A DNA stretch of 64,000 nt from Candidatus Sulfomarinibacteraceae bacterium (GTDB lineage Bacteria > Acidobacteriota > Thermoanaerobaculia > Thermoanaerobaculales > Sulfomarinibacteraceae), in contig CAWCLO010000006.1 in NCBI GenBank assembly GCA_963796455.1, positions 1 through 64,000 of the forward strand, read 5' to 3'. Position numbers and translations under genes: made by a program. The notes under the pieces were generated by a model. The model was not told where the DNA came from and did not search any database. It saw nothing but the letters and a program-made list of their open reading frames with translations. Shown here piece by piece: positions 1 through 19,800 of this stretch. Each line of letters starts with the position of its first letter. The first letter of the stretch is position 1.

Positions 1-40
1 AATCCGGTGGTCCCGGGTTCGAGTCCCGGGCGGCCCACCA
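1..40 (+). tRNA. 3' part of tRNA-Lys(TTT): anticodon 3' strand, variable loop, T arm, acceptor strand, CCA; 5' half lies outside the window
   Basis: AATCCGG-TGGTC-CCGGG-TTCGAGT-CCCGG-GCGGCCC-ACCA has a canonical T stem/loop and CCA. The anticodon loop CTTTTAA is read from the downstream copies at 7179 and 11733. Confidence 0.85.
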
Positions 41-75
41 ATTTTCGTGTCCGGCCTTCGGCCGACACGAAAATT
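40..75 (+). terminator. hairpin immediately after the tRNA
   Basis: AATTTTCGTGTC...GACACGAAAATT inverted repeat around CGGCCTTCGGCC. Confidence 0.6.
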
Positions 76-562
76 GTCACAGGCGTAGCTCGGAGAGCGA
101 AGCCGGACATCCGCGCTGACACCTGTAGCCGGTCAAGAAGGATCGCCGGGCAAGCCAACCTTCTCCAAGACGTTGTTGTGAACTCAACAATGCGGAACGT
201 GGTACCCATGTTGGACAGCAGTGTCCTGAACTCATCAATGTCTCCCAGAACGGTGGGGCAGGCTGGGGCGTTCTACCACAGAGACTACAACTGGTTGACA
301 TACTGCTTAATTAGTAGCATAAGATACTAATGTTAGAATATCAGATTGAATCCCTGCATATCTGTCGTTGGCTTTTGCGGTCAACAGCAACAAAGGACGA
401 TATCGAGATAAAGATGGTGTTGATGGGTGCGCAGGAGATGACAACGACCATGGACTCCGTGGAGTTCAACGTGGAGATTCCGGAGGGGACCTTCGACCTG
501 CCTGCGGAAATCCAGGAACTGCTCGCCGCGAGACAGCCGGCGGCGGGAGAGTGAGGGTCAAC

Positions 563-1489
563 ATGAGCCACGACTACGATCCCGGCCCTCTCCAGGCTCT
601 CGGGTTCACGGAGACCGAGGCCCTCGTGTACGGCTATCTCGTCGAGAACTCGCCGGCGACGGGGTACCGGATCAGCCACGCCATAGGGAAGCAGCCGGCC
701 AACACCTACAAGGCTCTCAGATCTCTCGAAGACAAGGGGGCGATCATCATCGAGTCGGGGAAGAGCAATCTGTGTCAGGCTGTCCCCCCCGAGGAATTCT
801 CGACAACCTGGAGAGGCGGTTCCAGCGGCATCGCCTCGAGGCCAAGCGTGAACTGGAGGCCCTCCCCTCGCCTTCCGCGTATGGCGGCATCTTCCATCTG
901 AAGAGCGTCGAACAGGTGATTCAGCGGGCCAGGGCCATGGTGGGCGAAGCGAAAGAGATCGTGCTCTGCGATCTATCTCCGGGCCCGTGCGAGCGGATGG
1001 CCGAGGTCCTGCGCCAGGCGGCCGCTTCGGGTGTGGTTGTCGCTTGCCACGTCTACGCCGAAGAGGAGATCGAGGGCGTGCACACCCTGAACATGACCAA
1101 TCGTGATCTCGCTTCGGATCGATTGGCCCGGACAGCAGATCAGCGTCGTCGTCGACAGCCTGGAGCACTTGCTGGGACTGCTCGCGATGGACATGGAGAC
1201 GGTTCACGAGGCGGTATGGAGCAGCAGCAACTTCCTGTCCTGCATGCAGCACAACAACCTAGTGGCCGAACTCATAGCCATCGGCCCCGTGTCCAGATAC
1301 TCGGGACCGGCGGACGATGTCGCCGAGTTCCTGAACAGCATCACCCTGATGCGGTTCCGCCCGCCCGGCCTCGAGGCGCTCATCCGGCGCTATGGCTCCG
1401 GCGATGCTCCGGGCCAGGGGAGACGACACGCGCTAGGGGTCGAGAACGCGGTCAATCGACCGACAATGAAAGGAAGGACCAAACAATGA
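563..1489 (+). CDS. TrmB-family transcriptional regulator (two frameshifts)
   Basis: N-terminal LQALGFTETEALVYGYL...ATGYRISHAIG...NTYKALRSLEDKGAI wHTH; continues in ORFs 772..1668 and 1103..1489. Confidence 0.75.
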
Positions 1490-1700
1490 GAAAGCCCGAA
1501 GTGCATTCTCGGCCTGCTCATCATCGTCAACGCCTGCCTGTGGGGTTTCACGATAATCATGGTCTCCCACACCCTGAAGGGAACCGGCGCCTACCAGGAG
1601 ATCCAGCACATCCTGGGTGCGCGGCTGGGATGTCGGTCGTGATCGTTGGTGGCGGCATGGCTGGATGATGACTGCGATGAAAGCGAAGGGGGGAGATCCG
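1486..1700 (+). CDS. small membrane protein (frameshifted, end approximate)
   Basis: RBS GGAAGGA and ATG overlapping the TrmB stop; hydrophobic ILGLLIIVNACLWGFTIIMVSH in a shifted frame. Confidence 0.4.
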
Positions 1701-1976
1701 GACGCAAGGTGATGATTATGGATCAGGCCGTCCGTGGGGGTCCCAGATCAGAGTATCAGGCCCCCGCAACCAGTGACCCGCCCGAATCTCGTACCACCTG
1801 GAGGTTGAGAGTCGAGGTTCCTGTAGTGCCCGCCAAAACGGAGCATGTCCGACAGCTCCATGGGTTCGAAATACTCGCACCTATTCACACATCCGTATCT
1901 CGTGGAGCACGTCCACCCATGGCGAGGGCCACACACCGCTCCCTTCGGCGTGTTGACTCGCGGCCTACGGCCGCGG

Positions 1977-3841
1977 CTGGGGTTTGGCATCGAGGCGGTT
2001 GCGTAGCGTCCTTTTGGGCGTGATTCGAGGGTAGAACCGGCAGGCTGGTCAGTTGTTTAGCTTGTGATGTCTTGACAAAAAAGACGATTGATGATATCTA
2101 GTTATTACACTAGATACAGGAGGTCATCATGGGCTATCCAACCCGCGTCCAACTGATCAAGCGCAAGGCCAGCGAACAGTGGTACATCAACTTCCCCGCT
2201 GCGCTCGCACAAGCATGTGATTTCTCCAAAGGGGAAACCGTCGAGTGGGTCGTGCGCGACAAGTACTCCCTTGTCCTCGAACGGACCGAGGCTCGCAGCA
2301 GCCCTGAGAATGAGGGGGTAAAAAAAAACTCCGCAGATCTACTGAGCGAGTTCGACAACGTGTGGAACTCCACCACAAGCCCCTTCCGGCAGGCAAGAAC
2401 CCGCGAGCGGGCATATCGGCTCGCTCTAGGGATGCTCGGGTGCCTTGGTCGACACACCATCACCGGAGTCCTCACAGCCACCGGGCGGCAGCATCTGGAC
2501 TGGACGTCAGACTACAGGTTCTTCTCTCAAGCACGATGGAAACCCGAAGAGCCTTTCGCTCCAGTGCTGCGGTCGGTGCTTGAGCTCGTCGCAGATCAGT
2601 CACCGCTGGTAGTAGCGATCGACGACACCAACCTGAGAAAAACCGGGACCAAGATCCCGGGCGTGTCGTACCGCCGTAATTGCAATTTCTTCGCCTTTCC
2701 ATCCCAATTTTGTCCGCGCGCAGCGCTTCTGTCAGGTATCTGCGATGGTGCCCGATCTGATTCTGAAGGGTGCTGCAAGAGCAGTCCCGATTCGCTTTCA
2801 CCACGCACCGACTCCTCGCAAACCTTGGCGCACGGCCTCCGACGAGCGGAGACGGGAGTACCGACGTCTGTGCCGTCAGACCAGTCTCCCTCTACAGGCT
2901 GCTTGCCTCCTGAAAGGTGTGCGAGATGAACTCCCTTCTTCGCACGCCCGGCGGCAGCTCATCGCGCTCGTCGACGGATCATTCTGCAACGGGCCATTCC
3001 TCAAGAAATCGACCCGAAAGGACGACTGTGATCGGGCGCATCCGCAAGGATGCGAAACTGTACGCATTACCCCTGGAATCAGCCCGCAGTCGGTCGCAGA
3101 AGAGTCTATGGTGAGCGTCTGCCAACACCGCGGGAGATCCATCTCGATGGGGAGCAACCCCATGGACTCCTGTCAACGCCTTTGCCGCTCGTAGAATCCA
3201 CACCTTCCACGCAAAACCGATCGGTTCCGTGTTGTAGGCACGGGCTCGGCGCTCACGCTTCTGCCTCCAGCTTGTCGCAATCAAACCTCTCCACTATCGA
3301 GCGCCTGGGAATGAACGTTTGTCGTATCGACACCCCGCATACCTGATCTGTACCGATCCGAATCTTCCTTTGCAGAAGGTCATCCAGTATTACCTCTGGC
3401 GGTGGGACATCGAGGTCAACCATCGCGACGAGAAACAGATCATCGGCGTCGGCCAGGCCCAGGTGCGTTCGCCCAAAGCTGTGGATCGTCCTCCCGGCCT
3501 TTGCGGTCGCTGTCTACGCGACTCTTCTGCTTGCCGGCATCCGAGCTCAGCGCAATGGTGGAAACGTCGATCCTCTCCCCCCACCAAAGTGGCAGCACTG
3601 CAAACCGCGCCCGAGGATCCCTACTCAGACCCTCCTACGTCACGTCCGCGGCTCAACTCTGGGGAGACGCGATTTACTCGAGGCCTCTGAGTTTCTCTAA
3701 CTTCGCGTCGCAAACAAACCATAAAACGAAACTACAGAAACGCCACCTGCCCCTTGCATCGGCTCTTCAGTATGTCGTCAATTAAACCCTCACCGTGAAT
3801 CCGGTCTGCCAACGCCACGCCTGAAAAGCGCCAAACCCCAG
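1977..3841 (+). mobile_element. IS4/IS701-like insertion sequence: small AbrB-like ORF plus frameshifted DDE transposase
   Basis: Terminal IRs CTGGGGTTTGGC (1977-1988) and GCCAAACCCCAG (3830-3841); motifs VVAIDDTNLRKTG, LVDGSFCN, YLWRWDIEVNHRDEKQ; flanking 19-20 bp direct repeat. Confidence 0.85.
2072..2116 (+). promoter_or_regulatory. IS promoter with overlapping palindromic operator
   Basis: TTGACA at 2072; TATCTAGT-N6-ACTAGATA at 2095-2116; GGAGG RBS before ATG 2129. Confidence 0.55.
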
Positions 3842-4219
3842 TCGCGGCCTTACGGCCGCGGCGTTGCGCCCCGTCGAGAGTTCTGAACCACGCCCTGGCA
3901 TGCCGAGACGGTACGCTCCCATCGCCAAACAACTTTATGAATGGTTCCCCCTGGCACCGATACGGCTATCTCCGGTCGTTTAAGATGCACATGTGAGTGT
4001 CCTCAGTTCCATAGATTGTTGCCTATTCCGTCGTGGAGGCTCGATCTACGCGACAAAGCATGAAAAACGGCAGGGGACATCTTGATAAAAACAGCCCCGG
4101 CCAGGTTTGAGTTCATTCTTGAAGGGTGGGTTGTATGAACGGCGTCCAACGCAACAGGGGAAAAGGTCAGAAGAAGGTCGCCAGGCACCTGAATCAGACG
4201 GAGGCATGAGGGAGGTCAC

Positions 4220-4905
4220 ATGAGCACGGCTCTGGAAATGTTCGCTCCGGACGTCTGGGTGAAGAAGTATCCGATTCGTTACTCCGGCTGCACCTTCCTC
4301 GCCTATAATGACCGTGATACGTCTCAAGGCGGGCCGCCTGCTGATTCACTCGCCCTGCGAGATCGACTCACAAACGAAGGCAGAGATCGCCGACCTCGGC
4401 CCCACCGCCTTCATCGTGGCGCCGGGCACCTACCACTATCTGCACGTCATCTCATGTCAGAAGGCATTCCCGGACGCGAAGACGTTTCTCTGTCCCGGCA
4501 TCGAGCGGAAGCGTCCCAAAATCCCCTTCGATGGGATTCTCGATGGCAACACACAACCCGAATGGGATGCTGAGCTCGATCAAGTCCTGGTGGAGGGCTC
4601 ACGGTTCATCTGGGAAGTCGCGTTCCTACACCGGGCGAGCAGGACTTTGATCCTCGTTGACCTGATCGAGAACATCGGCGATTCGACGCCGGGCACCAAC
4701 TCGGTATCGAGGTTCTTCTGGAAGGTCGTCTTCAGAATGTGGAACCGTCCCCGAAGGCTGGAAAGACAAGACAGCCGCCAGCCGGTCACTGTCACGTATT
4801 CTCTCGTGGGATTTCGAGCGAGTCCTCATCGCGCATGGAGAACCGATCGTCACCGATGCCAAAGAAACCCTGCGCAAGGCGTGGCAAGGTGTGTTGGATG
4901 GCTAA
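4220..4905 (+). CDS. DUF4336-like protein (frameshifted)
   Basis: MTVIRL...LLIHSP...IVAPGTYHYLH...EVAFLHRASRTLILVDL pattern; GGAGG RBS. Confidence 0.7.
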
Positions 4906-5621: not shown

Positions 5622-6950
5622 ATGGGATTACATTCTCTCTGGAAGACGGCGTCGATTGGCTGCCTCGGTCTATCTATGGTTCTGCTGCCTGGAGCAGCTT
5701 TGGCCCAGTGGGTTCAGGCGGGCGCTGACATCGACGGCGAGGCAAGCTTGGACGAATCGGGCTGGTCCGTGTCCCTCTCCGCAGACGGCTCTCGCGTGGC
5801 CATCGGGGCACCCAAGAACGATGGCAATGGCAGTGACTCCGGTCATGTCCGCGTCTATCAATGGATCGACCCGAACTGGGTACAGCTCGGCACCGACATC
5901 AATGGCGACGAGCCGGAGTTTTTCTGTGGCACCTCCGTGTCCATTTCCGCGGACGGTTCCCGCGTGGCCGTCGGGACGCCCGAAGCCGATGGCAACGGCA
6001 GTGACTCCGGTCATGTCCGCGTCTACGAGTGGTTCGACTGGACTTCAACCTGGCTGCTGGTGGGCTCTGACATCGAAGGCGAGGCAGAATGGGACAAATC
6101 GGGCTGGTCCGTGTCCCTTTCCGCAGACGGTTCACGCGTGGCCATCGGGGCGCCCTTAAACAATGGCAACGGCAGTGACTCCGGTCATGTCCGCGTCTAT
6201 CAATGGGTCGAGCCGAACTGGGTACAGCTCGGCAACGACATCGATGGCGATGGTTCTTTCATTCGCAGTGGCTCCTCCGTGTCCATTTCCGCAGACGGCT
6301 CTCGCGTGGCCGTCGGGGCGCCAGACGCCGATGGCAACGGCATTGACTCCGGTCATGTCCGCGTCTACGAGTGGTTCGACTGGACTTCAACCTGGCTGAC
6401 CGTGGGTTCTGAAATCGGTGGCGAAGGTGAGCACGACCTGTCCGGGTTTTCCGTGTCCCTTTCCGCAGACGGGTCACTCGTGGCCATCGGGTCGCCCGGA
6501 AGCAGTGCCGGCGGCCCCGCGGCGGGTCGAGTTCGTATCTTTGAGTACGACAGTCCGCATTGGTACCAGCGAGGTCCACACATCGTCGGCGAGACTTCGT
6601 TCGACAACTCCGGGAGGTCCGTGTCCCTTTCTGAAGACGGCTCATTCGTTGCCATCGGGGCGAACAACAACAATGGCGGCGGTAGCTTCAGGGGCCATGT
6701 TCGTGTTTTTGAGTGGGCCAACTCCGATTGGGTACAGTTCGGACAAGACATCGACGGTGAGGCAGATGCCGATTGGTCCGGGTGGTCTGTGTCCCTTTCT
6801 GCAGACGGTTCCCGCGTGGCCGTCGGGGCGCCCTACAACCATGACATCGGCAATCGGTCCGGTCATGTCCGTGTGTATTTCAGTATGCTGCTCTTTGCCG
6901 ACGGATTCGAGTCGGGCGACACCACGGCGTGGTCAATGACGGTGCCATAG
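5622..6950 (+). CDS. secreted FG-GAP-like beta-propeller protein with C-terminal FADGFESG motif
   Basis: Signal peptide; seven G-x-SVS-L/I-S-ADGS-x-VA-I/V-G repeats; ends LLFADGFESGDTTAWS. Confidence 0.85.
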   Translation: MGLHSLWKTASIGCLGLSMVLLPGAALAQWVQAGADIDGEASLDESGWSVSLSADGSRVAIGAPKNDGNGSDSGHVRVYQWIDPNWVQLGTDINGDEPEFFCGTSVSISADGSRVAVGTPEADGNGSDSGHVRVYEWFDWTSTWLLVGSDIEGEAEWDKSGWSVSLSADGSRVAIGAPLNNGNGSDSGHVRVYQWVEPNWVQLGNDIDGDGSFIRSGSSVSISADGSRVAVGAPDADGNGIDSGHVRVYEWFDWTSTWLTVGSEIGGEGEHDLSGFSVSLSADGSLVAIGSPGSSAGGPAAGRVRIFEYDSPHWYQRGPHIVGETSFDNSGRSVSLSEDGSFVAIGANNNNGGGSFRGHVRVFEWANSDWVQFGQDIDGEADADWSGWSVSLSADGSRVAVGAPYNHDIGNRSGHVRVYFSMLLFADGFESGDTTAWSMTVP

Positions 6951-7021
6951 ATCCCGGGACAGGTCAGCCTCCCTTGACACTTACATACGAAGCTGATTAA
7001 CCATCGGGAGAGGGTCATCCA

Positions 7022-7478
7022 TGGGACATCCATGGGACACTTGCCCTCAACTCCGTCCAACAAGCACCAACTATCCCCATCGAAGCTGCGGCACCCAACG
7101 TCCCTGTTTTGGGTTGGTTACCTTGTTGTGGGGTGTTGAGGATGACTGACGTATATTGTTGGAAATAGGCGTGTTACAGGACTTTTAATCCGGTGGTCCC
7201 GGGTTGCTTCGCCCTCCGGGATCGGCGTCCCGCCGAGATGAGCGGGTGGCCCTACCGGGCCCTGCTGCGGCTTTTCAGACGACGATGGGTCAGAGCTCCC
7301 TCGTCGCTTCGCTCCTCGGGACGCCGTTCGCCTCGCGCAGGGCACACCTGCTGGGCTCACGGCGCCTCTTCGACCGCCCTGGCGAGGGCCACTAGCCGCT
7401 CCCTTCGGCGTGGTCGAGTCCCGGGCGGCCCACCAGGCTTCGTTCGAAACTGCGTTTCGAACTACGCCCTGGCAAGCC
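7022..7478 (+). mobile_element. att-like junction: TGGGACA(C/T) arm doublet plus tRNA-Lys 3' half split by a 209-bp insert, then a palindrome
   Basis: Arms at 7022 and 7033; GGACTTTTAATCCGGTGGTCCCGGGTT at 7179-7205; CGAGTCCCGGGCGGCCCACCA at 7415-7435, identical to positions 20-40. Confidence 0.85.
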
Positions 7479-7777: not shown

Positions 7778-8334
7778 CTATCCCTCAGCCTCCTCCACGA
7801 TCTCCATTGCTGGAGGTGCTAGCGTGAAGCCGAGCTGCTGCATAATCGCCCCCTCGTTGTAGTACATCCATTCCTCGGAAAACCTGCCGTCAATAACATG
7901 GATGACGGATGCACCGCTGATCTGGATTGGCATTCCGGTGGGGGGCAGCTCGCCGACTGCGCCAGCGTCGGTGCCGGTCACCGTCCAGCGAAGCACGATC
8001 CTGTCGCCCGCCACGATGTACCTCGTCAAACCTCACGTGGAAATCGGGGAACTGGGTGCGGAATGCCATCACGGCCTCCCCGAATCCCACCGACCCGTAC
8101 GATGTCCTCTGAGATGTCAACCACATGACGGACGTAGCCGGGGCCCACAAGGTCGTCGATCAGATCCAGATCCCCCTCGTTCCAGATCGTGCGGGCGCGT
8201 TCAGCGAGAGCGGTCATAGCCTCCGTGGCCGAAGAATCAACCGCCTGCTGCTGGCAGCAGCCCGACGCGAGGCCCAGCATCACTAGGACGAACGCCGGAC
8301 CGGCAAACCTCAACACAACTCTCGATACTCTCAT
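7778..8334 (-). CDS. SnoaL-like ester cyclase family protein, possible lipoprotein (frameshifted)
   Basis: LASGC lipobox-like; IWNEGDLDLIDD, FRTQFPDFH, GDRIVLRWTVTGT, PPTG, SEEWMYYN spread over three frames. Confidence 0.75.
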
Positions 8335-8775: not shown

Positions 8776-9156
8776 TTACTCGGGAGAACCAGGACTCATG
8801 AACAGGTACGCGACACCCAAACCCAACAGCACGTAGATTCCAACAGCCGACCAACCGACTGCGCTCATCACACCTGATAGCGTTCCCTGCACCGAGACAA
8901 TCACGCCGATGATGTTGGAGATCAACAACGCGAGAATGATCGCTCGCCGTGCTCTGCCATCCGTAACATCTCTGGCGAGCCAACACACCAAGCCAATCCC
9001 AATAAGTGCTGCCCCGAAATACCGTCCCATGAGTATTTCGCCCGGACCCTGTGTGACTCCGTAGATCGACAACACGAGCTGCGGGAAGAGTTCAAAGCAA
9101 ATCCCGTAAGCTAGAGGGACGGTGGCGTGAATGATAAATATGGTTTTGAATTTCAT
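8776..9156 (-). CDS. small four-helix membrane protein
   Basis: Intact hydrophobic ORF starting MKFKTIFIIHA. Confidence 0.7.
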   Translation of the reverse strand: MKFKTIFIIHATVPLAYGICFELFPQLVLSIYGVTQGPGEILMGRYFGAALIGIGLVCWLARDVTDGRARRAIILALLISNIIGVIVSVQGTLSGVMSAVGWSAVGIYVLLGLGVAYLFMSPGSPE

Positions 9157-9773
9157 GAGGTCACCCCTTGTGGACCAATTGATAGGATCTTCCGAATACG
9201 ACGACATTCATTCGGTCAGCGAACCAATCTTAAGTACTCGATAGGCACCACCCCCTTTAGTTGGGCACACCTCAACCATCCCAACCATCGACAGGCTGAC
9301 GTGCCACCGGCTAACGGCGGGATACCCGCCATCGTCATGTTGTTCTCCGTTGTCTCTACCTAGGTAAGGTGGTGCCTAAGCGGACGGAATGCAACAACTG
9401 AATCCAGATATCCTCGTCTGGTTTCAATTAATTAGGAACGATTATTACGCCCTGGCAAGCGGGTTTTTCGTGAGGTTGTGATACCTGGCACGGTTTCTCG
9501 GAGGGTGACATCCCGGAGATCTGGACCCATATTGTCTTTGAAGTCACTCAAACAATGGACGCGTCAGGCTGGCCACGCCGAGGTCTCGCCGGATTCGATT
9601 ATCGATGTGGGCCGGTCCAAGATGAACCTATTTGAGGTGCACCAACAGGGCGCCACGGTAGCCTCGACTCTCAACTTCGATAAGGCACAGCTTTTCGGGC
9701 TTGGGTCAGGAACTTTCCGTCCCTATGGGGCGGGGTACAAATACAGGGGGCGGGCCAAGGGAGGATATCTGGA

Positions 9774-11405
9774 ATGAATACGCAAAGCGTTTTCAGATTA
9801 GTGGCGGTTGGAGTGATGACCATGACTCCGATGAGTCTGGCAGCAGAGGATGGCTGGACTGAAAAGACCGACATGCCAACAGCGAGATTCGGTCTTGCCA
9901 CCAGCGTTGTGGATGGCAGGGTTTACGCCATTGGCGGTGGAGTAGGTATGGGAGTCATGGTTCGCAACGTACAGGAATACGATCCGGCAACGGATAGCTG
10001 GGTGGAAAAGGCCAATATGCCTGCCGCCACATGTTGGCATTCCACCAGCGCAGTGGATGGCAGGATCTATGCCATCGGGGGCTGGGCGCCTGGTGGCGTC
10101 GGTATTGACACAGTGGTGGAATATGACCCAGCGACAGATACCTGGAGGGCAAGGGCTGAGATGCCGACACCAAGGAAATTCCTGTCCACCAGCGCAGTGA
10201 ACGGCAAGATCTACGCTATCGGGGGGTCAGAACTCTAAATGCTCTTGGCACAGTCGAAGAGTACGACCCAACTACAAACACCTGGACAACGAAAACCGAT
10301 ATGCCGACGCCGAGAATACTCATGTCCACCAGCGTGGTCGACGGGATCATCTATGCCATCGGAGGCGCCCTAGAGCCGAATACACAGAGGACTCGACAGT
10401 GGAGGCTTACGATCCGGCGACGGACACCTGGACGACAAAGGCGCCGATGCCGACGGCAAGGGCCTTTTTCTCCACCAGTGTGGTGAACGGGAAGATCTAC
10501 GCCATCGGAGGTTGCACAGGAAACTATGACGTTCTTACTTCCAACACCGTGGAGGTATTCGATCCGGTGACGAACACTTGGACGGTGACGGACGATATGC
10601 CAACCCCAAGAGCGGCATTGGCCACCAGCGCGGTCAACGGCAGAATCTACGCCATCGGGGGCGATCTACAGTTGCGCTTTTTTGGAACAATCCTTCTTCA
10701 ATAGTGGAAGAACTGACCGTTGCCCCGCCCGAACTGCCCTTCGTCTACTGGCTGGAGGTGGCCGCCAATCTGCCGGGCAGCTACGGGAGCCAGTGGGTCA
10801 CCGACCTGGTCCTGTTCAACGAGGCGGAGACGGCCGCCACCGTCTCCCTCGTTCTCCACGCTGAGGACGGCCAGCACACCGCGCCCGCGTCGGTCGTCGC
10901 CGGCGCCCAGGGGGTGTTCGAAAACGTCGTCGGCAGCCTCCAACACCAGGGGAAGGGCCCGCTCGAGGTACGCTCCAGCCTCTCGCTGCGGGCCGCCGCG
11001 CGGACCTACAACCTGGCGACCGAGGGCACATTCGGCCAGGGCTTCGCGCTCTACACCACGGATCAGGGCTTGGCCGCCGGCGACACGACGTGGTTGCTCG
11101 AACTGCGCCAGGAGCAGGACCGGTTCCGGACCAACATCGCCGTCGCCAACACAGGCGACGCCGACGCATCGGTGCGGATCCACCTCATGGCGACTGACGG
11201 AAGCGAAATCCACGCCTACACCCTCGACCTCGAGCCGGGCGAGCTGATTCAGGACCTCGAGCCCTTCGCGAGACGCGCCGGCCGTCCCGATCTGGGGTGG
11301 GGGCTGGCCCGGGCGGAGGTGATAACCGGTTCAGGGGTGCTGGTGTCCGCGTCGGTCATCGACTCGCGCACCAACGACGCGACCACTGTGCCGATGCAGC
11401 GGTAG
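9774..11405 (+). CDS. secreted Kelch-repeat protein with C-terminal lineage-typical domain (frameshifted)
   Basis: Six MPT-x-R...S-x-V-x-G-x-IYAIGG repeats; C-terminal AANLPGSYGSQWVTDL...SVIDSRTNDATT domain. Confidence 0.8.
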
Positions 11406-11500: not shown

Positions 11501-12157
11501 GTGACCCAGGCCCTGAAAGCTCTACCACCTGAAGGTTGAGAGTCGCGCCTTGTTCTCCGTGGTCTCCGCCTATCGTGGGGCACTGGTGGGACACTCGCGC
11601 TCAATCCCGCCCAACAAACGCCAATACACCCCATCAAAGCAGTGACACACAAGGTCCTCTTTTGGGGCCGTTTACCTTGTTGTGTAGTGTTGAAGGTGAT
11701 TGACACATGTTGTTGATAATAAGCTATTTACAGGACTTTTAATCCGGTGGTCCCGGGTTTACGTCGTCCCCCTCCCTGCCACCCTCACGACGCGTCCCGC
11801 CGAGATGAGCGGGTGGCCCTACCGGGCCCTGCTGCGGCTTTGCAGACGACGATGGGTCAGAGCTCCCTCGTCGCTTCGCTCCTCGGGACGCCGTTCGCCT
11901 CGCGCAGGACACGCCTGCTGGGCTCACGGCGCCTCTTCGACCCCCATGGCGAGGGCCACACACCGCTCCCTTCGGCGTGTTGGCTCGCGGCTTTCGGCCG
12001 CGGCGTTGCACCGCCGTCAGCGAGTGGCCGATGGTCGGCTTCCCATCCCCCACCCGTCCAACCTCGGCCACACGTCGCTGCCGTCGGCGGAATCGAGTCC
12101 TAGGCGGCCCACCAGGCTTCGTTCAAAACTGCGTTTTGAACCACGCCCGGGCAAGCC
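11501..12157 (+). mobile_element. att-like junction: boundary motif, arm doublet, tRNA-Lys 3' half split by a 334-bp insert, then a palindrome
   Basis: TACCACCTGAAGGTTGAGAGT at 11523; arms at 11576 and 11587; tRNA parts at 11733-11759 and 12094-12114. Confidence 0.85.
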
Positions 12158-12446
12158 CACCATAGCCTGGAACGCTGTTTTGAACGGAGCCTGCTCGTGA
12201 GGGCGTAGCGCGGAGCGCGAAGCCCCATCACGGCGTAGCGCAACGAAGCCGGACATCCTCCTCCACGCCACACAAGGCCTCGAACTACGCCCGGGTAAGC
12301 CAAGTCACGGCGTCTTGTGACGGCGTAGCCTCTGGGCGAAGCCGCAAGCCGGAGGCGACTTGTGCCGGCGAAGTCGAAGACGAAGCCGCAAGCCGGATTC
12401 CGAAGCCACCCGCCAACTAAGTCTCAGACTACGCCTGGGTAATGCC
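12115..12446. repeat. cluster of REP-like GGCGTAG...CGAAGCC / CTTCG...CTACGCC palindromic units
   Basis: Units near 12115, 12201, 12232, 12283, 12321, 12367 and 12428; related units at 82, 3885, 7436, 9446, 16007-16100 and 19610-19757. Confidence 0.75.
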
Positions 12447-12579
12447 TGCTCTCAACATCCAAAATGGGCCACAAGATCACGAGTGTGTGTTTTGATCATT
12501 CAACGCCCAACTTCCTAAGGTTCTAATCCAGCGAAGCCGGAACCATAGTCACCGAGGGTGGTGAGCTACGATCGTCGAC

Positions 12580-14091
12580 ATGTCACAGCTAAAGGAACGG
12601 TATCGGCGGGTTGTTGTGGGAGAGGTGTCGTGTTTTGACCGGGTGGTCATCAACGGGACGCTGACGGAGATCTGCCACACGGCGGCGGTGGCACAGTACC
12701 TGATTTCTCGCAAGGAGCGATTACTGGACATGCCGCGGGTATTTGAGCGAATGAAGACCGAGATCGTGGCGAACGCGAAGGCAGTTGCCACCGCCCACGG
12801 GCTCAAGATCGAGTACATCCCTCGGAAGAGCTTTCGGAAGGAAGAACGGATTCGAGAGATCCTCGCTGAGCGTGGTGACGACCCTGGGTTGGTGCACATC
12901 TTTTCTGCGACCGAGCGATTGAACACCTTTCGAGCCGGGGCCCGCAAGGACACAGGCCGACCGTTCATCGCACCGCGACAGGGACAGTGCCTGCACTATT
13001 ACTTCTACTTCATTGATCCAGATTTTGGGCTTTGTTACCTGCGGGTGCCGACATGGGCGCCTTTTCGTTTGCAGTTCTACTTCAACGGTCACAACTGGCT
13101 GGCTCGTCGGCTTTCAGAGGAAGGCATCGATTTCACACTGATCGACAACGCTTTCGTGAATATCGCAGATTTCGACAGAGCACAGGAGATCGCCGACGAA
13201 TTCCCCGTAAGGGCCCTGCACACGAGGCTGGACGATCTGGCACGCCTGCTGTGCCCGGTAATCCGCTACTTTCACTCCGGCTACTACTGGAGCTTGATGC
13301 AGGTGGAGTATGCCACCGACCTGATCTTCACCTCGGCCGAGGCGCTGGCTCCGCTGTATGACCATTTGGTGCGTACCGCGGCGCATGCGGTCAAGGTAGA
13401 TCAGATCGCGACCTTTCTTGGACGCCGTCTCGACGGGCGTTTCGCCGGCGAGATCGGCAACCGTTTTCACACGCGCATCCAAGGCACGAGCATCAGACAC
13501 CATATGGGCCGTGCCTCAATCAAGATGTATGACAAGATTGGCCGGGTCTTGCGCATCGAGACCACCGTCAACGATGTCACCATTTTCAAGTACCACCGCA
13601 TGGTGGAACACCGCGACGGGACGCAGTCTATGAAGACCGCACCCGTGAAGAAGAACATCTACAGCCTTGCGATCATGGCGAAGCTCATGGCGGCGGCCAA
13701 CCGTCGCTATCTGGACTTCCTGGCCGCTCTCGACGACCCGTCCGATGGAGCCCGGAAGCTGCCGAAGGTCGCGGAGTCGGTGCGGAGGAAAGGACGCAGC
13801 CACCGCGGCTTCAACCTGTTTCAGGCAGAGGACCTCGCGGTCTTCCTCGCCATCGTCCGCGGTGAGTTTGCCATCACAGGCTTCCGTAACCTCGATCTTC
13901 GGCGCCATCTCGGAAAGAACAGCCGCCAGGTGTCCCGAATCCTCAAAAGGCTGCGGCTCCACGGCCTCATCAAGATCGTCGGGAAACGGTACAAGTACTA
14001 CCTCACCCGCCTCGGTCGATCGGTCGTCTCCTGTGCGCTTCAACTCCGCGAAAACCTCGTCATCCCCACACTTGCCGCGCCGATCAGCTGA
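12580..14091 (+). CDS. putative transposase of an unclassified IS-like family with C-terminal winged HTH
   Basis: Intact 503-aa ORF; motifs SCFDRVVINGTL, HYYFYFIDPDFGLCYLRVPTWAPF, QVEYATD, KMYDK...LRIETT, GFRNLDLR...RLRLHGLI; no DDE pattern evident. Confidence 0.6.
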   Translation: MSQLKERYRRVVVGEVSCFDRVVINGTLTEICHTAAVAQYLISRKERLLDMPRVFERMKTEIVANAKAVATAHGLKIEYIPRKSFRKEERIREILAERGDDPGLVHIFSATERLNTFRAGARKDTGRPFIAPRQGQCLHYYFYFIDPDFGLCYLRVPTWAPFRLQFYFNGHNWLARRLSEEGIDFTLIDNAFVNIADFDRAQEIADEFPVRALHTRLDDLARLLCPVIRYFHSGYYWSLMQVEYATDLIFTSAEALAPLYDHLVRTAAHAVKVDQIATFLGRRLDGRFAGEIGNRFHTRIQGTSIRHHMGRASIKMYDKIGRVLRIETTVNDVTIFKYHRMVEHRDGTQSMKTAPVKKNIYSLAIMAKLMAAANRRYLDFLAALDDPSDGARKLPKVAESVRRKGRSHRGFNLFQAEDLAVFLAIVRGEFAITGFRNLDLRRHLGKNSRQVSRILKRLRLHGLIKIVGKRYKYYLTRLGRSVVSCALQLRENLVIPTLAAPIS

Positions 14092-14331
14092 CGCACCGCC
14101 AGGATTTGTCTCCATCTTGCGGACAATCTCACGGGTAAGGAGCTAAAGCCCGGCACCGAGACCTAAAGCCCGGCAGACCGAGACCGAGACTTTCGGCTGC
14201 TCCAGCTCACCCTTCGTATGAATCCACTGGTGCGAGCAGCCATCCTCGTGCAGGTCACCTGGTGTCGATGGATCCCACAACTGGTATTTGCCGATGTCGA
14301 TACTGATTTGGCGACGGTCGTGATGGATGCG

Positions 14332-14913
14332 CTATCCGCTCGCCTCAGCTCGGGCCGTCGCGAGGAGTTCGGACAGGCCGAGACGGCGAGCCCACTCATC
14401 CAGATACAGTGCGTCGAGCCTGTCTTCTTGGGCTTTGAGGACTCCAAGCAGGTCTTTCCATTGGCGATCAGAGACGCCGCCGCCTTCTTTGAACCACTGA
14501 AGCTTGCGAAGGACGATGTCCTCGGCTGATTTGACCGCGGCCCACCTGGGAGGGTCGACGACGATCTGCTCTCTGATGCTGCGCTGCAACTCGACACGAT
14601 CGAACTGCTGGTCTCCTGCGACGAAAAAGTCCACCTTGAAGCCGCTCGTCAGGTGGATGGCGTTGAAGCTGGTTTTTTGCGAAACCGCGTCTGCTACGAC
14701 CGACTCGTCCACGTAGAAATCTCCGGCCAGAGAAGCAGCGAGTTGGCGTCCTGCCTCTGGCGACAGATCGACGACGATGTCCACGTCGCCGGTCTGGCGG
14801 GGCACGCCGTGGATGGTGCTGGCAAAGGACCCGCCGAGGTGGTATGGAATCGATAGGCCATCGAGGATGTCGATCACCTGGACCACGACGGCCAGCACCG
14901 AGGTCACGCTCAT
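14332..14913 (-). CDS. nucleotidyltransferase-fold protein (putative TA component)
   Basis: YHLGGSFASTIHGVPRQTGDVDIVV, KVDFF, SAEDIVLRKLQW. Confidence 0.7.
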   Translation of the reverse strand: MSVTSVLAVVVQVIDILDGLSIPYHLGGSFASTIHGVPRQTGDVDIVVDLSPEAGRQLAASLAGDFYVDESVVADAVSQKTSFNAIHLTSGFKVDFFVAGDQQFDRVELQRSIREQIVVDPPRWAAVKSAEDIVLRKLQWFKEGGGVSDRQWKDLLGVLKAQEDRLDALYLDEWARRLGLSELLATARAEASG

Positions 14914-15158
14914 GACTTGAGGGGGCCGAAGGCGGCCGCAGCCAGGTCTTCTCCCAGGATCAGATCCATGAGAAGGCGTTCGATGGTCTCTCGACATGCG
15001 TCGGGGTTGCGGCTGCGCAGTCCGGCACGGGCCAGATCTCTGGCTGCGAGACAGGCATCATCGAGCAGCTCCAACCGACGCCAGGCAGGCATGTCGCGGA
15101 AGATCCCGAGCATCACGGCCTCCGCGTCTGCAGACGTGTCCCGTGAGAGAGTTCCCAT
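14910..15158 (-). CDS. small partner protein (putative antitoxin) coupled to the nucleotidyltransferase
   Basis: 82 aa, DTSADAEAVMLGIFRDMPAWRRLELL; ATGA overlap with the next gene. Confidence 0.65.
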   Translation of the reverse strand: MGTLSRDTSADAEAVMLGIFRDMPAWRRLELLDDACLAARDLARAGLRSRNPDACRETIERLLMDLILGEDLAAAAFGPLKS

Positions 15159-15380: not shown

Positions 15381-15388
15381 GATTTCGG

Positions 15389-15679
15389 ATGGCAATCAAG
15401 AGCTTCGCCGGCCGGGCAATCGAGAGGTTCTTTTTCGAAGGAGTTGCTCCAAAACGTGCCGGTTGGGCCGGGGTCGTGAAAGCCGCCGCCAGAAAGCTGG
15501 ACATGCTGGATTACGCGAATCAGCTGAAGGATCTGGCCTCTCCTCCGGGAAACCGGCTGGAGGCTCTGAAAGGAGACCTCTCGGGTTTTCACAGTATCCG
15601 GATAAACGATCAGTGGAGAGTGATCTTCAGGTGGACTGATTCGGGTCCGACCGATGTAGACATTCATGATTATCATTGA
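15389..15679 (+). CDS. higB: HigB (RelE/ParE-type) toxin
   Basis: IKSF...PPGNRLEALKGDLSGFHSIRINDQWRVIFRW...DYH. Confidence 0.92.
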   Translation: MAIKSFAGRAIERFFFEGVAPKRAGWAGVVKAAARKLDMLDYANQLKDLASPPGNRLEALKGDLSGFHSIRINDQWRVIFRWTDSGPTDVDIHDYH

Positions 15680-15686
15680 GGAAAGC

Positions 15687-15977
15687 ATGAAGAGACGACG
15701 CGAACCAACGACACCGGGCGAAATTCTCCGCGATGAGTTTCTCGTGCCGCTGGGAATGACTCAGAAAGAACTGGCTGATCACATCGGATGCGATGTGAAG
15801 GTCATCAATCGAATTGTCAACGGACGAACCTCGGTGTCGGCCGAGATGGCCCTGAGGCTAGGTGCCACCTTCAGGACTTCACCCGAGTTCTGGCTGAATG
15901 CTCAGAAGGCCGTGGATCTGTTCCGCGCCGGACACCGGGTCCCCAACCTGCCGGCGCCCGTGCTCAAGGCGAGCTGA
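15687..15977 (+). CDS. higA: HigA antitoxin
   Basis: PTTPGEILRDEFLVPLGMTQ...SAEMALRL...PEFWLNAQ. Confidence 0.92.
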   Translation: MKRRREPTTPGEILRDEFLVPLGMTQKELADHIGCDVKVINRIVNGRTSVSAEMALRLGATFRTSPEFWLNAQKAVDLFRAGHRVPNLPAPVLKAS

Positions 15978-16184
15978 TTGTAGAGCCAAGTCCCGCCGTC
16001 TAGTGACGGCGTAGCTGCGAAGCAGAAGAAGAGGGCATACGCCTCCACGGCGATACCTAACCTCGAACTACGCCCGGGCAAGCCTGTCACGGCGAAGCCC
16101 AGCGCCGGAACGCTCCCACAATGCGACAATACGGAACGTGTGACTTCTCATAGCGGCACGAAAACACAAAGCGGAGGTCGGTTC

Positions 16185-16993
16185 GTGCATCATCATCCAC
16201 CCCCAAAGGCGTCTCCCACCGCCTTCTTCGTGCTGACCTTCGTCCTATCCGTGCCTTTCTACATTCTCAATGCACTCGCGTATCTCAATGTCCTTTTCGA
16301 GCCCAAAATGGGCGCCCTTTATGTTTCCCTCTTCACCCTCACGCCGATCACGTCCGCCTCGATCCTGGCATTCCGAAGGAACAGATGGGATGGCGTGAAA
16401 AGACTCCTCGGGAGAATCTTTGATTTCAGGAGGATCGGGAGCAAGAAATGGTACGTACCCATCCTTCTCTTGGTGCCTCTGGTCTTTCTGCTTTCCCTGG
16501 GGGTGATGGTCTTGTCGGGGGAGCCGATTCCTGCTGGGTTGATCCCGGTCGTGGCCCTGCCGGCGGTATTCCTCTTCTTCTTCATCCTGGCGGCCGGGGA
16601 AGAGGTCGGCTGGATGGGATACGCCTTCGGGCCAATGCAGGCGAAGGGCGGCGCCCTCAAGGCCTCCCTGGTGCTGGGTGTGATTTGGGCGGTCTGGCAC
16701 GTTCCTTTTTTGTCTTCATGATGCCCGATCCGGTGATCCTCCTCGCGCAGCTCTTCACGCTGGTGGGGACCCGGGTCCTGATGGCCTGGATCTTCAACAA
16801 CACGGGGCAGAGCGTTTTCGCGGCCATCTTGTTCCATGCCGCCGACAATGCAGCGCTCGTGACCATGCCTGAGATCCAGGCAATCTCCCCCTGGGGCGCC
16901 GTCGTGCACAGCACATTTATCCTGGTCGCCGCCGGCGTCGTTGCGCTGCTGTGGGGGCCCCGGACCTTGGCTCGATTCAGGTTCGGGGACTGA
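16185..16993 (+). CDS. CPBP/CAAX (Abi) intramembrane metalloprotease (frameshift near 16710)
   Basis: GEEVGWMGY, WAVWHVP, FNNTGQSVFAAILFHA. Confidence 0.85.
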
Positions 16994-17146
16994 GTTTGTG
17001 CGATTCGATGGTTTCCACCCAGAACGACCTCGGCAACACCTCCGAGAAGGGGCGGCATGACAGCAAGTGATGCCGCGGGACCCGGCGCCGGCCCCGAGCT
17101 GGTACGAGCTTCGAGGTATTGCGCTTTTTGACTGAGAGGAGTCGAC

Positions 17147-17638
17147 ATGACAGAAAAGGCCCAGTGCGCGCTTGCTGACGGCTTTCGTCTTTGGGAGAAG
17201 ATCTACGCTCAGGGGTCGTTCATCGGGATGGGAATTTTCGCCGTTGTCGGCATCGCGCTCGTTGATTGGCGATGGGTTCTGCCCTATCTCGTGATTTACG
17301 CGTACGGCATCTTGGGAGTCGTCATGAGGCACCTCAATTGTCCGAGATGTCCGCATCTCCATGTTTACAACGACTGCCTGCAATTCCCCACACCAATCAC
17401 GAAATGGCTGGTGAAAGAGCAAAAGACGACGCCATTCAGCACTATGGAGAAGCTCCTCTTCTTCTCGATCTTTCTTCTCATACCCACGTATCCCATCTAC
17501 TGGCTGGTGGCAAGCCCATTCACGTTGGTCGGGTTCCTGTCGTTGGCCGCTGTATGGTACGGCGGGCAGTTCTTCTATTTCTGCAAGAGATGCCGAGTCG
17601 AGCAGTGTCCCGTCAATCGGGCTGTGTTCATTCACTGA
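17147..17638 (+). CDS. membrane protein with Cys clusters
   Basis: GAGGAG RBS; TM segments; CPRCPH and CKRCRVEQCP. Confidence 0.7.
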   Translation: MTEKAQCALADGFRLWEKIYAQGSFIGMGIFAVVGIALVDWRWVLPYLVIYAYGILGVVMRHLNCPRCPHLHVYNDCLQFPTPITKWLVKEQKTTPFSTMEKLLFFSIFLLIPTYPIYWLVASPFTLVGFLSLAAVWYGGQFFYFCKRCRVEQCPVNRAVFIH

Positions 17639-17687
17639 CGCATCAAGACCCTCAGCGGTGCCACCCTTCGCATTCACACACTGCCGG

Positions 17688-17850
17688 TGACCCAGGCCCT
17701 ATTTTCTGTACCACCTGAAGGTTGAGAGTTTCACCTCCGGTGCCATCCTGGCGATGGGCCTCGACAGGTCTTTCCGGTATCGAGTTTTGTGGGACACTCT
17801 TGGGACACTTGCGCTCAACATCGGCCCAAAACCGACAACGAAAACCAACA
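17688..17850 (+). mobile_element. truncated att-like junction (boundary motif plus arm doublet, tRNA part absent)
   Basis: GTGACCCAGGCCCT...TACCACCTGAAGGTTGAGAGT (17709) and TGGGACAC at 17790 and 17801 followed by TTGCGCTCAAC, as at 7033 and 11587. Confidence 0.7.
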
Positions 17851-17980
17851 GAAGGAGGTCTCCCGAAGCCCCCATGGCGCGCGTGGCGCGGGAGGTCGCG
17901 CGGGTCCCGGTAGAGAAACCGGCCCGCGCGGGCGAACCGGAATTCTCCCGTTGATCAGCGACCCGTGGAGCCGTCAGGCC

Positions 17981-19084
17981 CTACTCTGCGCGATCGTCGT
18001 AGGTCGGAAAGTCGGTGTAGCCTTTGGCGCCGTTGCCGCCCGAGTACCAGGTGCTCATATCGAAGTCTTCGTTGAGGGGCCAGCCGTTTGCGAAGCGGGC
18101 CGGAAGGTCGGGGTTGTTGATGAACGGTCGGCCGAAGGCAATCAGATCGGCAGCGCCTCGACCGACCGCCTCCTCGGCGGTCTCGACATCGTAACCGCAA
18201 CTGCCGATAAGGGTTCCGTGGTAGACCTCGCGGGCGTGTTCGAGAGTGACCGGCTCACCGAGTTCATGGAACCCGAATGCCAGTCCGTCAACCAGATGGA
18301 GGTAGGCCAGGCCCATGGCCTGCAACTGTTTTGCCGTGTAGGTGAAGGTCTCGCGATAGTCCGGTGAGCCCATGTCGTTGAATGACCCGTTGGGGGAGAG
18401 GCGCACGCCCACCCGGTCCGACGACCAGGCTTTGCTCGCCGCTTCGAGGACCTCTCCGAGGAGCCGAAAACGCTTCTCGATACTGCCTCCATAGCGGTCG
18501 GTGCGCCGATTGGTCTTGGACTCGAGGAACTGGTTGAGCAGGTAGCCGTTGGCGGCGTGGACCTCGACGCCGTCGAAGCCTGCGGTTCGTGCGAGTTCTG
18601 TAGCTCGCGCGAAGTCGGCGACGATGGCGGGGATCTCATCGGGCTCCAGGGCCCTGGGTGTCTCGTAGGGCTTCGGGCCGTCGGGCGTGTGCACGTGATC
18701 TCCTTCGAGCTTGACCGCTGAGGGGGCCACCGCCGGCTGACCGCCGTGAAACGCGCTGTGCGACGCCCGGCCGCAGTGCCAGAGCTGCAGGAAAATCGGC
18801 GTGCCCGTCGCGTGAACGGCGTCGGTCACCAGCTTCCAGCCCTCGGCCTGGGCCTCGGTGTAGATCCCGGGGGAATCGACCCAACCGATTCCCTGCTCGG
18901 AGACGACCGTCGCCTCGGTGATCAGGAGTCCGGCCCCGGCGCGTTGGACGTAGTACTCCGCCATGAGTTCGCTGGGAACCCTGCCTTCCCCTGCCCTTGC
19001 GCGGGTCATCGGCGCGAGCACGATGCGATTCTTCAGGGTCAGGCCGCTCATTTCGAACGAGGTGAAGAGCTGCTTTTCGGTCAT
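17981..19084 (-). CDS. alkene reductase (old yellow enzyme, NemA/XenB-like)
   Basis: LKNRIVLAPMTRAR, QLWHCGR, GFDGVEVHAANGYLLNQFL, FGRPFINNPDLP. Confidence 0.93.
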   Translation of the reverse strand: MTEKQLFTSFEMSGLTLKNRIVLAPMTRARAGEGRVPSELMAEYYVQRAGAGLLITEATVVSEQGIGWVDSPGIYTEAQAEGWKLVTDAVHATGTPIFLQLWHCGRASHSAFHGGQPAVAPSAVKLEGDHVHTPDGPKPYETPRALEPDEIPAIVADFARATELARTAGFDGVEVHAANGYLLNQFLESKTNRRTDRYGGSIEKRFRLLGEVLEAASKAWSSDRVGVRLSPNGSFNDMGSPDYRETFTYTAKQLQAMGLAYLHLVDGLAFGFHELGEPVTLEHAREVYHGTLIGSCGYDVETAEEAVGRGAADLIAFGRPFINNPDLPARFANGWPLNEDFDMSTWYSGGNGAKGYTDFPTYDDRAE

Positions 19085-19800
19085 GTTGTCTCCAGGTCGT
19101 GTATTGACCGCGAGCAGCGACAGTTGCTGCTCATCGTGTGCGGGTCAGCCAGAGCAACAAACCATGGAGATGATGCTATTCCTCGCGAAAATCCCGGAGT
19201 GTTCGGGTTGTCTGGTCGTCGGCGGGGGCGCAGGCGCGACCACCCCCCGAAGCCAGGACGAGCAGATGGGCGAAGACTCCGTCGGTCGGTTTTGTCTGCC
19301 TTCTCGTCTTCCGGATTGGTTCAGGTATGCGTGTCATGCGGTTATCGGTGGTAACTCCACCATTTTCAAAGATGCTCACAAAGCGCATACCTGGCACCCG
19401 ACTACGGCAAAAGGCCCGACCAGGCGCCGGTGTCACCGCTTTCGAATCCATCACTGAACAGGGGAAACCCGGCGCGGACCCAGATGCCTGCGATCCCACC
19501 GGCATAGCCGGTTGACTCCACAGCCAATGCGATGGCCTCGACGGTTTCCGCCGCCAGCTAGGGCGCCACGTTCCGCATTGGCCTTTTGGTTTGGTGGCCC
19601 CGGGTTTGCGTCGTAGCCCGTGGGACGAAGCCGGAAGCCGGACATCCCTTTCGAAGCCAGTACCTAATCGAGAACTACGCCCTGGCACGCCATCCTTCTG
19701 TTAACCCAGATTCGAGCGAAGCCTGCTTGTGACGGCGAAGGGCGCAACGCCACATCAATTTCATCTCTCCGCCAGTGCCACCCGCGCGATCTACCATGCC

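Follow-up and report, generated by a model that had tools for sequence, protein, structure and literature searches.

The stretch analysed here (the window) covers positions 1 to 64,000 of contig CAWCLO010000006.1 (C6), the start of that contig, in the genome of a Candidatus Sulfomarinibacteraceae bacterium (GCA_963796455.1, here G000; 10 contigs, 5.02 Mb). Up to position 19760, it holds a tandem array in which 3′ halves of a tRNA-Lys(TTT) gene alternate with small cargo genes (Table 1). The halves (1–40, 7179–7435, and 11733–12114) all lie on the same strand and begin in the anticodon stem, and the two internal ones are present as an earlier note on this DNA had described them. Each internal half is preceded by a 159-bp arm (7022–7180 and 11576–11734, respectively); the two arms are identical at 116 of 159 positions in a gap-free alignment, which bears out the homologous ends of ~160 bp reported in that note. 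At its start, the arm has two TGGGACAC-type repeats that lie 11 bp apart; the arm at 7022–7180 opens with TGGGACAT-CCA-TGGGACAC. With at most two mismatches, the double-repeat motif occurs three times in the 5.02-Mb genome, and it is not a chance motif because all three copies fall in this array. A third arm, at 17790, is truncated and loses similarity after 30–50 bp. Each unit thus runs from a tRNA 3′ half through a hairpin with a repeat and one to a few cargo genes to a 159-bp arm of the right-attachment-site (attR) type. No tRNA gene was predicted in the window by ARAGORN.

A structured insert interrupts the T loop of each internal half at GGTT^CGA. The inserts measure 209 and 334 bp, the longer sharing 188 bp (96%) with the shorter, and because of this interruption the halves cannot rebuild a working tRNA. 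The degraded junctions of the earlier note were recovered in part: the truncated arm at 17790 stood, whereas 1773–3904 held neither arm nor tRNA letters. The segment 1773–3906 consists of a piece of a T-loop insert, an IS701-like insertion sequence (IS) seated in a hairpin of the insert remnant, and a repeat. The inventory had also overlooked two transposon-like elements and a junction remnant at 19560–19615, from which the arm has been deleted and in which 32 of 39 letters match a junction of the relative G018.

A scan of GTDB genomes with the arm pattern returned 55 loci, many of which consisted of the arm, an anticodon loop, and a tRNA 3′ half. In L108, L118/L152, L131, and L144, an integrase of ~355 aa was encoded 7–9 kb upstream of the arm, behind further arm repeats, and an intact tRNA lay upstream of these repeats where the contig extended so far. 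These integrases formed one PF00589 family (alignment A2), for which the consulted part of PMC8138268 gives no subgroup name. Because the same arm pattern terminates these autonomous integrase islands, the window arm is, judged by its sequence, the attR end of a ~355-aa tyrosine-integrase family that targets tRNA anticodon loops. The islands resemble the units of the array in having arm repeats 11 bp apart, the same place before the anticodon loop, and the same range of target tRNAs; their own left end (tRNA, site like that of integration host factor (IHF), arm repeats, integrase) is missing from the units here. In G086, which belongs to the same family of bacteria, the order is tRNA-Leu, TAGTGCACTCCTGGTGCAG arm, integrase; the second type of arm in the genus carries this TAGTGCACTCCTGGTGCAG motif, and the TGGTGCAC-type junctions of G013 and G020 match the G086 integrase. 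Arms from other phyla were ~24 bp shorter (134–136 bp before class I tRNA cores). The repeats are predicted to bind the integrase. For the mv4 integrase, each arm is described as ending in two directly repeated 11-bp arm sites (bioRxiv 10.1101/2023.11.06.565760), and an equivalent pair with an 11-bp period, in direct repeat and at the arm end, is present here.

It is very improbable that a host recombinase acts on the arm instead, be it an integron integrase reading an attC hairpin or XerCD using an accessory sequence like those of cer or psi. G000 encodes XerC-like, XerD-like, and broken integron-integrase-like genes (names read from the sequences), the arm contains loosely palindromic-looking CAAC/GTTG motifs, and cer and psi have one-sided accessory sequences of similar length. 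An attC-like hairpin was nevertheless rejected, as the consensus energy was −1.97 kcal/mol, no hairpin was conserved, and five of six arms folded no better than shuffled sequences; no dif-like core was seen by eye, and the repeats of the arm match those next to the dedicated integrase of the autonomous islands.

From hand-listed cores, we obtained 29 core-to-core intervals, 23 in 11 genomes and six on metagenome contigs (two of these six being the same unit). Interval lengths were 454–15,407 bp (median 3,944 bp), and 13 of the 29 started at an intact tRNA. No integrase or integrase remnant was detected in any interval by hidden Markov model (HMM) or tblastn searches, tools that did find integrases in control loci; decayed integrase genes in every module, which the earlier note had named as evidence against its proposal, were not seen. 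Three arm types accompanied the displaced halves, which occurred at tRNA-Lys, -Leu, -Arg, and -Ala; the same arm types preceded Lys, Leu, and Arg halves. Arm repeats lay within 200 bp of 35 of the 37 displaced halves compared with 5.5% of random windows, figures obtained with an arm pattern fixed after the data had been seen, with hand-listed cores, and with related genomes that are not independent. Among 35 arms with a core 150–185 bp downstream, the length was exactly 159 bp in 27 and 156–158 bp in the other eight. The 26 distinct 159-bp arms were 41–88% identical (median 53%), and their conservation was phased at 10–11 bp to a degree reached by none of 2,000 permutations.

The left ends gave a different picture. 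Behind the tRNA end of autonomous controls, an IHF-like site was found in 17 of 20 and a repeat pair in 15 of 20, the sites being called with what we take to be the IHF consensus. In genus-type loci, such a site followed the tRNA end in three of 78 rows (among them duplicates, roughly five spurious matches in coding DNA, and a single locus from another phylum), and in the window in none. The place of the left attachment site (attL) is usually filled in these loci by a hairpin and repeat module, as at 41–165 in the window, where they occupy the position of the IHF-like site and attL arm of autonomous islands. Retention of attR (35 of 37) is thus not accompanied by retention of attL (three of 78 rows).

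This one-sidedness bears on the possibility that the array represents eroded tandem islands, in which successive autonomous islands, accreting like cis-mobilisable elements (CIMEs), would have lost the attL arm and the integrase through insertion of the tRNA-end repeat and through deletions, so that cargo and the attR arm remain as a relic. We regard this as the main alternative, serious but doubtful. Decay followed by accretion is a described route (PMC5704250, PMC7563491), and the three attL-like ends have no integrase behind them, as erosion leaves; truncated arms are common across loci, the window DUF4336 gene is split into three frames while none of 29 core genes tested is split, and the junction at 19560 lacks its arm. 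Erosion does not readily explain why no integrase remnant persists in the 29 intervals, 13 of them at an intact tRNA, where the newest element would be expected, or why loss is one-sided although both arms lie near their cores. The integrase family was not found in 25 genus genomes, the donor pool that erosion requires was likewise not found, and CIMEs by definition, as the cited sources put it, keep both att sites.

Comparison of loci revealed change unit by unit. The DNA directly behind the intact tRNA-Lys of G022 was 98% identical over 1,500 bp to the DNA behind an arm–core junction of L084, forming a filled/empty pair that shows the gain of a unit; L092 shared its arm and upstream cargo with L084 and differed in the DNA behind. 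L085 and L093 had a nearly identical upstream junction with different integrase-less units (1.8 and 2.0 kb, respectively), and in L096, an intact tRNA-Leu was followed by 1.85 kb of cargo, an arm, and a half. In one comparison, the arms were 88% alike and the kinases 34%; in another, between Lys and Arg, the kinases were 75% alike and the arms 46%. These sequence comparisons show that arm, cargo, and target tRNA have been re-assorted among units. An identical cargo order in all relatives, which the earlier note would have counted against its proposal, was not observed, as cargo differed unit by unit.

Such shuffling might also be produced by RecA-dependent homologous recombination through 100–300 bp of homology (tRNA half, repeat module, arm, and a dispersed E motif), for example after DNA uptake, with the arms as passengers. 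Numerous tRNAs, and tmRNA, have the repeat module behind them, frequently as tandem copies, E motifs are dense in the variable regions, cargo is common to different hotspots (DUF4336 and HigB of the window are 93% and 95% identical to copies in G021 and G013, respectively), and the block in the window is seemingly displaced to the tRNA-Ala locus. We consider this process improbable as the main cause, since it leaves unexplained the exact length and phasing of arms that are ~50% identical and the same arm types before Lys, Leu, and Arg halves; it may operate alongside either a one-armed or an erosion model.

The earlier statement that the window encodes no tyrosine or serine recombinase was confirmed. 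The three PF00589 matches of G000, all on other contigs, are the Xer-like and integron-integrase-like genes named above, and G000 gave no PF07508 or PF00239 match; PF07508 was found in three of the 25 genus genomes. PF00589 matches were present in 24 of the 25 genus genomes, where they were sorted by size and coverage rather than individually, and none lay within the fetched arrays. The cognate integrase family was found in none of the 25 genus genomes, with one strong match (G086) in 119 genomes of the order and in 18 of 401 genomes of the class; these are metagenome-assembled genomes (MAGs), 65–97% complete, whose contigs often end at such tRNAs, and "not found" does not mean absent. The closest homologues of the G086 integrase among the best 120 were two proteins at 76–80% (P0002 and P0003), which came without genomic context. 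A protein search of viral contigs gave nine loci at 40–55% identity, none with a genus arm.

Our preferred reading, to which we give about an even chance, is that the region is an old stack whose cassettes have a single arm, depend on a helper, and are recombined at the anticodon loop by a rare integrase provided in trans. This enzyme, a member of the ~355-aa family, would arrive briefly with a rare autonomous element and, together with IHF, would bind the single arm and recombine the arm–core site with a bare core. Units would be excised as circles and inserted at the tRNA anticodon loop, new ones pushing older ones outward; any DNA landing between the tRNA end and the next arm would become cargo, and selection would then maintain the attR arm alone. 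A reaction between arm–core and bare core would account for both the conservation of attR only and the arbitrary nature of the cargo, while canonical excision in trans would be unavailable to the units because they have no attL arm. The internal copies of the window would have been immobilised as tRNA-restoring units by their T-loop inserts and would be decaying; under this reading or erosion alike, the window array appears largely fixed and ageing. The earlier proposal of att-plus-cargo units moved in trans thus retains its attR-type ends and its integrase-less units (29 intervals), whereas the attL arm is missing and no helper was found in G000 or the genus.

Several points weigh against helper-dependent cassettes, including the attL-like ends without integrase and the after-the-fact arm pattern already described. 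Canonical heterobivalent integrases (mv4 and lambda) are described as having arm sites on both attP arms, the circular form predicted here would carry arm sites on one side of its core only, and one-armed recombination by the ~355-aa family is something that we infer from sequence. A one-armed attL × attL pathway does exist in lambda. No helper integrase was found in G000 or the genus, and viral contigs searched with three arm patterns led to none either, the first pattern matching one unrelated locus, the second nothing, and the third one repeat-like locus. Because the L084 contig does not reach the left end of its unit, this unit may have entered with an integrase. Divergence of the arms may have taken place in autonomous donors that were not seen; MAG contigs often break at these tRNAs. 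The truncated arms, deleted junction, and broken cargo represent decay.

A broader extension of the cassette reading, which we put forward tentatively and by analogy, is that the tRNA genes of the genus could form a distributed integron-like system, attR junctions corresponding to attC and anticodon loops to attI, in which a rare visiting integrase of the G086 family would shuffle cassettes across tRNA-Lys, -Leu, and -Arg and T-loop inserts would lock them. Like integrons and clusters of attC sites lacking an integron integrase (CALINs; PMC11389934, as far as consulted), the array has polarised, small, unrelated cargo, one site per unit, toxin–antitoxin (TA) genes, and a candidate integrase in trans. 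It differs in using a double-stranded phased arm with a tRNA half rather than a single-stranded attC hairpin, and from a complete integron in that no intI or attI adjoins it, the sole intI-like gene being broken and on another contig.

By comparison with the consulted parts of the literature, CIMEs and accretion arrays of Streptococcus (PMC5704250, PMC7563491) appear to be the closest known system, although the units here do not keep both att sites. These are cargo elements of 1–13 kb that lack an integrase, pile up at the 3′ end of target genes (tRNA-Lys among them), and move only with the help of another element. CIMEs keep attL and attR, derive from integrative and conjugative or integrative and mobilisable elements (ICEs or IMEs), and usually adjoin a functional element at the target; in the present arrays, almost no unit has an attL arm, the integrase is missing even from units next to the tRNA, and the integrase family was not found in the 25 genomes. 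No parent island with the same cargo was found, and no functional mobile neighbour suited to cis-mobilisation was found within the window. The tDNA islands and tandem arrays of Islander (PMC4383910) likewise have a tRNA gene and displaced 3′ fragments as ends, with crossover at an anticodon-centred site, and the fragments here are in the right orientation (same strand at 1, 7181, and 11735); Islander, as described there, demands an integrase per array member and at least 2 kb, rules under which every unit here would be discarded. Tycheposons of Prochlorococcus (bioRxiv 10.1101/2020.12.28.424599) also place cargo side by side at tRNAs with partial tRNA copies between, new elements pushing old ones; according to the consulted text, they encode an integrase and often replication genes, with fragmented integrases in the islands, of which there are none here. 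In a literature search that covered few subscription journals and no supplements, neither one-armed integrase-less tRNA cassettes nor such T-loop inserts were found described. What the present case contributes is one-sided arm loss, a 159-bp phasing that holds for the different arm types, T-loop inserts, and a specific candidate helper.

The layout serves gene collection and is common to close relatives of this sediment bacterium. Integrase-less tandem tRNA elements are usually taken as decayed islands and discarded by island finders, and the choice between relic and hitch-hiking cassette is now directly assayable through the systematic one-sided loss, the exact helical length, and a candidate helper with matching repeats. 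If one arm suffices, this would be a new route of accessory-gene collection in bacteria and a compact integration system; if not, it would reflect unusually fast and tidy island domestication in a sediment Acidobacteriota lineage. If the integron-like extension were true, natural one-armed site-specific recombination would sustain a large cassette pool invisible to island finders.

Regarding the setting of the array, the contig begins inside the anticodon loop, and an assembly gap lies upstream of position 1. The earlier description of the array as anchored on tRNA-Lys was not substantiated, as the single intact tRNA-Lys(TTT) of G000 lies on C10 behind purA and differs from the window halves in the T arm and acceptor. 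The half at 1–40, unlike that C10 copy, equals the 3′ half of the intact purA-linked tRNA-Lys of G013, G018, and G022 and may be part of an intact gene or another displaced copy. Placement of the window inside the resident purA–tRNA-Lys–tRNA-Glu locus was rejected: that locus runs from C10 to C3 and on to tRNA-Glu, and holds displaced halves of its own. Conserved genes at 46–63 kb of the window come after tRNA-Ala(CGC) in four of five relatives examined (the fifth contig stops earlier), and the tRNA-Ala(CGC) of G000 lies 14.5 kb from the end of C7. On the basis of this synteny and the C7 position, the array is probably a block within a tRNA-Ala hotspot or lies downstream of a second tRNA-Lys lost in the gap, for which a second tRNA-Lys gene away from purA in G012 is a precedent. 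An intact target tRNA heads the unit in 13 intervals elsewhere; in the window, gene order suggests tRNA-Ala(CGC) as the upstream neighbour.

That the contig begins within an anticodon loop, that cargo frameshifts could reflect poorer consensus, and that no public contig spans the stretch (four runs, with contigs of other strains or relatives) might suggest that assembly created the repeats or a chimeric contig start. This is extremely unlikely, as the copies differ (116 of 159 identical positions) and the same architecture recurs in 10 other genomes and on independent metagenome contigs. Repeat-module joints in the read-run contigs were not used, their sides being short (20–45 letters).

Table 1. 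Features of the array at the start of the window.
Feature	Position	Strand	Remark
tRNA-Lys(TTT) 3′ half, uninterrupted, cut by contig start	1..40	+	
Terminator-like hairpin, then tRNA-downstream repeat module GCGTAGC..GCGAAGCCGG	41..165	+	right limit approximate
Dispersed E motif, TGGGTGCCACGTTCCGCATTG type	186..208	-	
TrmB-family regulator, several frames	563..1489	+	PF01978, weak PF11495
Box A repeat	1773..1831	+	outside att arm
T-loop insert remnant	1916..1976	+	95% to 11943-12004
IS701-like element, frameshifted transposase, terminal inverted repeats CTGGGGTTTGGC	1977..3841	+	DDE_5; NCBIfam IS701 models below cut-off
Rest of insert remnant and repeat, without tRNA letters or arm	3842..3906	+	
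DUF4336 gene, three frames	4220..4904	+	Pfam
FG-GAP repeat protein, signal-like N terminus	5622..6950	+	Pfam; ends 72 bp before arm
attR-type arm, 159 bp	7022..7180	+	
Core: tRNA-Lys anticodon loop to T loop	7181..7205	+	
Structured T-loop insert, 209 bp	7206..7414	+	
tRNA 3′ end (CCA at 7435) and downstream hairpin repeat	7415..7478	+	
SnoaL/ketosteroid-isomerase-like gene, frameshifted	7778..8334	-	TIGR02096 below cut-off (NCBIfam)
Small membrane protein	8776..9156	-	Pfam/NCBIfam: no family above cut-off
Box A, inverted copy	9648..9708	-	
Kelch-repeat gene, broken by stop and frameshifts	9774..11405	+	Pfam
Box A	11501..11550	+	
attR-type arm, 159 bp	11576..11734	+	
Core: tRNA-Lys anticodon loop to T loop	11735..11759	+	
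Structured T-loop insert, 334 bp	11760..12093	+	
tRNA 3′ end (to 12114) and several repeat-module copies	12094..12450	+	
IS-like insertion, intact 503-aa open reading frame (12580-14091)	12549..14111	+	no named family above cut-off
Possible TA pair: nucleotidyltransferase-like gene (AbiEii/DUF6036 lead) with 82-aa partner	14332..15158	-	Pfam/NCBIfam: none
HigB-HigA toxin-antitoxin pair	15389..15977	+	HigB Pfam, HigA NCBIfam
Repeat module	15984..16110	+	
CPBP/Rce1-like protease, frameshifted	16140..16993	+	Pfam
163-aa membrane protein	17147..17638	+	Pfam/NCBIfam: no family
E motif, then box A	17655..17731	+	
Truncated attR arm: repeats retained, core side gone	17790..17840	+	
NADH:flavin oxidoreductase (old yellow enzyme family), intact	17981..19084	-	PF00724
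Junction remnant: E motif fused to degenerate tRNA-Lys core and T-loop insert start	19560..19615	+	arm deleted
Repeat module at array end	19609..19760	+	
Repeat module, all copies in window	41-165, 7436-7478, 12115-12450, 15984-16110, 19609-19760		
Repeat module elsewhere in G000	C7:279288-279640, C9:20520-21080, C10:37070-37400		

The cargo list of the earlier note was largely supported, with TrmB, DUF4336, FG-GAP, Kelch, HigB, and CPBP matched in Pfam and HigA and a SnoaL-like fragment in NCBIfam, while its second TA pair remained unmatched. The intact counterpart of the window DUF4336 gene lies downstream of tRNA-Lys in G021 (93% DNA identity), and the HigB counterpart right behind a tRNA-Lys half in G013. 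The broken cargo genes may reflect either decay or a poorer consensus in the variable region. A Pfam scan of 37 window open reading frames found no transfer-gene family. The 1,563-bp segment 12549–14111 was skipped by contigs in three of four runs (joint sides short, 26–28 letters); its 503-aa protein belongs to a widespread family (Atlas clusters at 0.98) with a C-terminal helix-turn-helix-like part, and the insertion adjoins CTTCCTAAGGTTCTAA, which also flanks a RAYT-like gene on C8. The IS701-like element has a near-identical 19–20-bp hairpin on both sides, which may represent a long target duplication or hairpin targeting. The segment 4906–5415 is bounded by 32-bp inverted repeats (AAAAAGGTGCCGGGCACC type) and contains no recognisable gene, with contigs skipping 5029–5291 in three of four runs. 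In other arrays, paralogous Ser/Thr kinase genes (34–75% identical) are numerous (L022, L053, L021, L015, and L198) and often stand directly before a whole or truncated arm; orphan TAGTGCAC repeats before kinase genes were considered as attL arms and rejected, as they are truncated attR arms.

Box A (TACCACCTG..GTTGAGAG; 1773, 11501, and 17687) was rejected as a part of the att arm: it also occurs inverted at 9648–9708 and was found in one of 24 relatives. Two copies form an inverted pair around the Kelch gene, the single copy in G022 (L187) again lies within a tRNA-Lys array, and 9565–9755, which holds the inverted copy, was skipped by contigs in all four runs.

T-loop inserts of 102–334 bp, placed exactly at GGTT^CGA, were seen in displaced tRNA-Lys and -Leu halves of the window, L018, L024, L060, L077, L089, L090, and L182, and in no intact tRNA among the loci examined. 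In G001, two tandem 178-bp units (T arm, insert, and 3′ end) stand behind tRNA-Lys. The repeat module (hairpin, TGTCACGGCGTAGC..GCGAAGCCGG, and GAACTACGCCCTGGCAAGCC) directly follows the CCA of many tRNAs and of tmRNA, with a tandem period of 110–113 bp, and has no Rfam match; Rfam at gathering level also gave no match in window 1–20,500. GIY-YIG was rejected as the mover of these tRNA-end repeats, G000 having one match, a 668-aa frame on another contig. The E motif (TGGGTGCCACGTTCCGCATTG) is dense in variable regions, between genes and in both orientations (window 186–208, 17655, and 19560; G000 C4:630,000–684,000 and C6:265,000–288,000; L024 and L057), and interrupts genes at two loci, a kinase (L080) and a reverse-transcriptase-like frame (L057). 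The motif may be the sign of another system, unconnected with tRNAs, for capturing or deleting genes.

At the purA-linked locus, the T arm and acceptor of the intact tRNA-Lys(TTT) vary among G000, G001, G013, G014, and G021, which is what one would expect were the 3′ half brought in by arriving elements. The purA–tRNA-Lys array also contains a carotenoid biosynthesis cluster (G000 C10:1255–12131, minus strand; L023 and L058; gene names read from the sequences), which in G000 lies between the two parts, ~11 kb apart, of a tRNA half split in the T loop. Three copies of an IS91-family element surround the C7/C6 gap (window 37094–40682; G000 C7:279899–286913), and the window copy is followed by an AbiEi/AbiEii-like pair ~95% identical to a pair in the tRNA-Ala hotspot of G001. 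A 7-bp unit (TCCGAAC/T) is repeated ~17 times at window 46243–46389, with similar runs before tRNA-Leu on C8.

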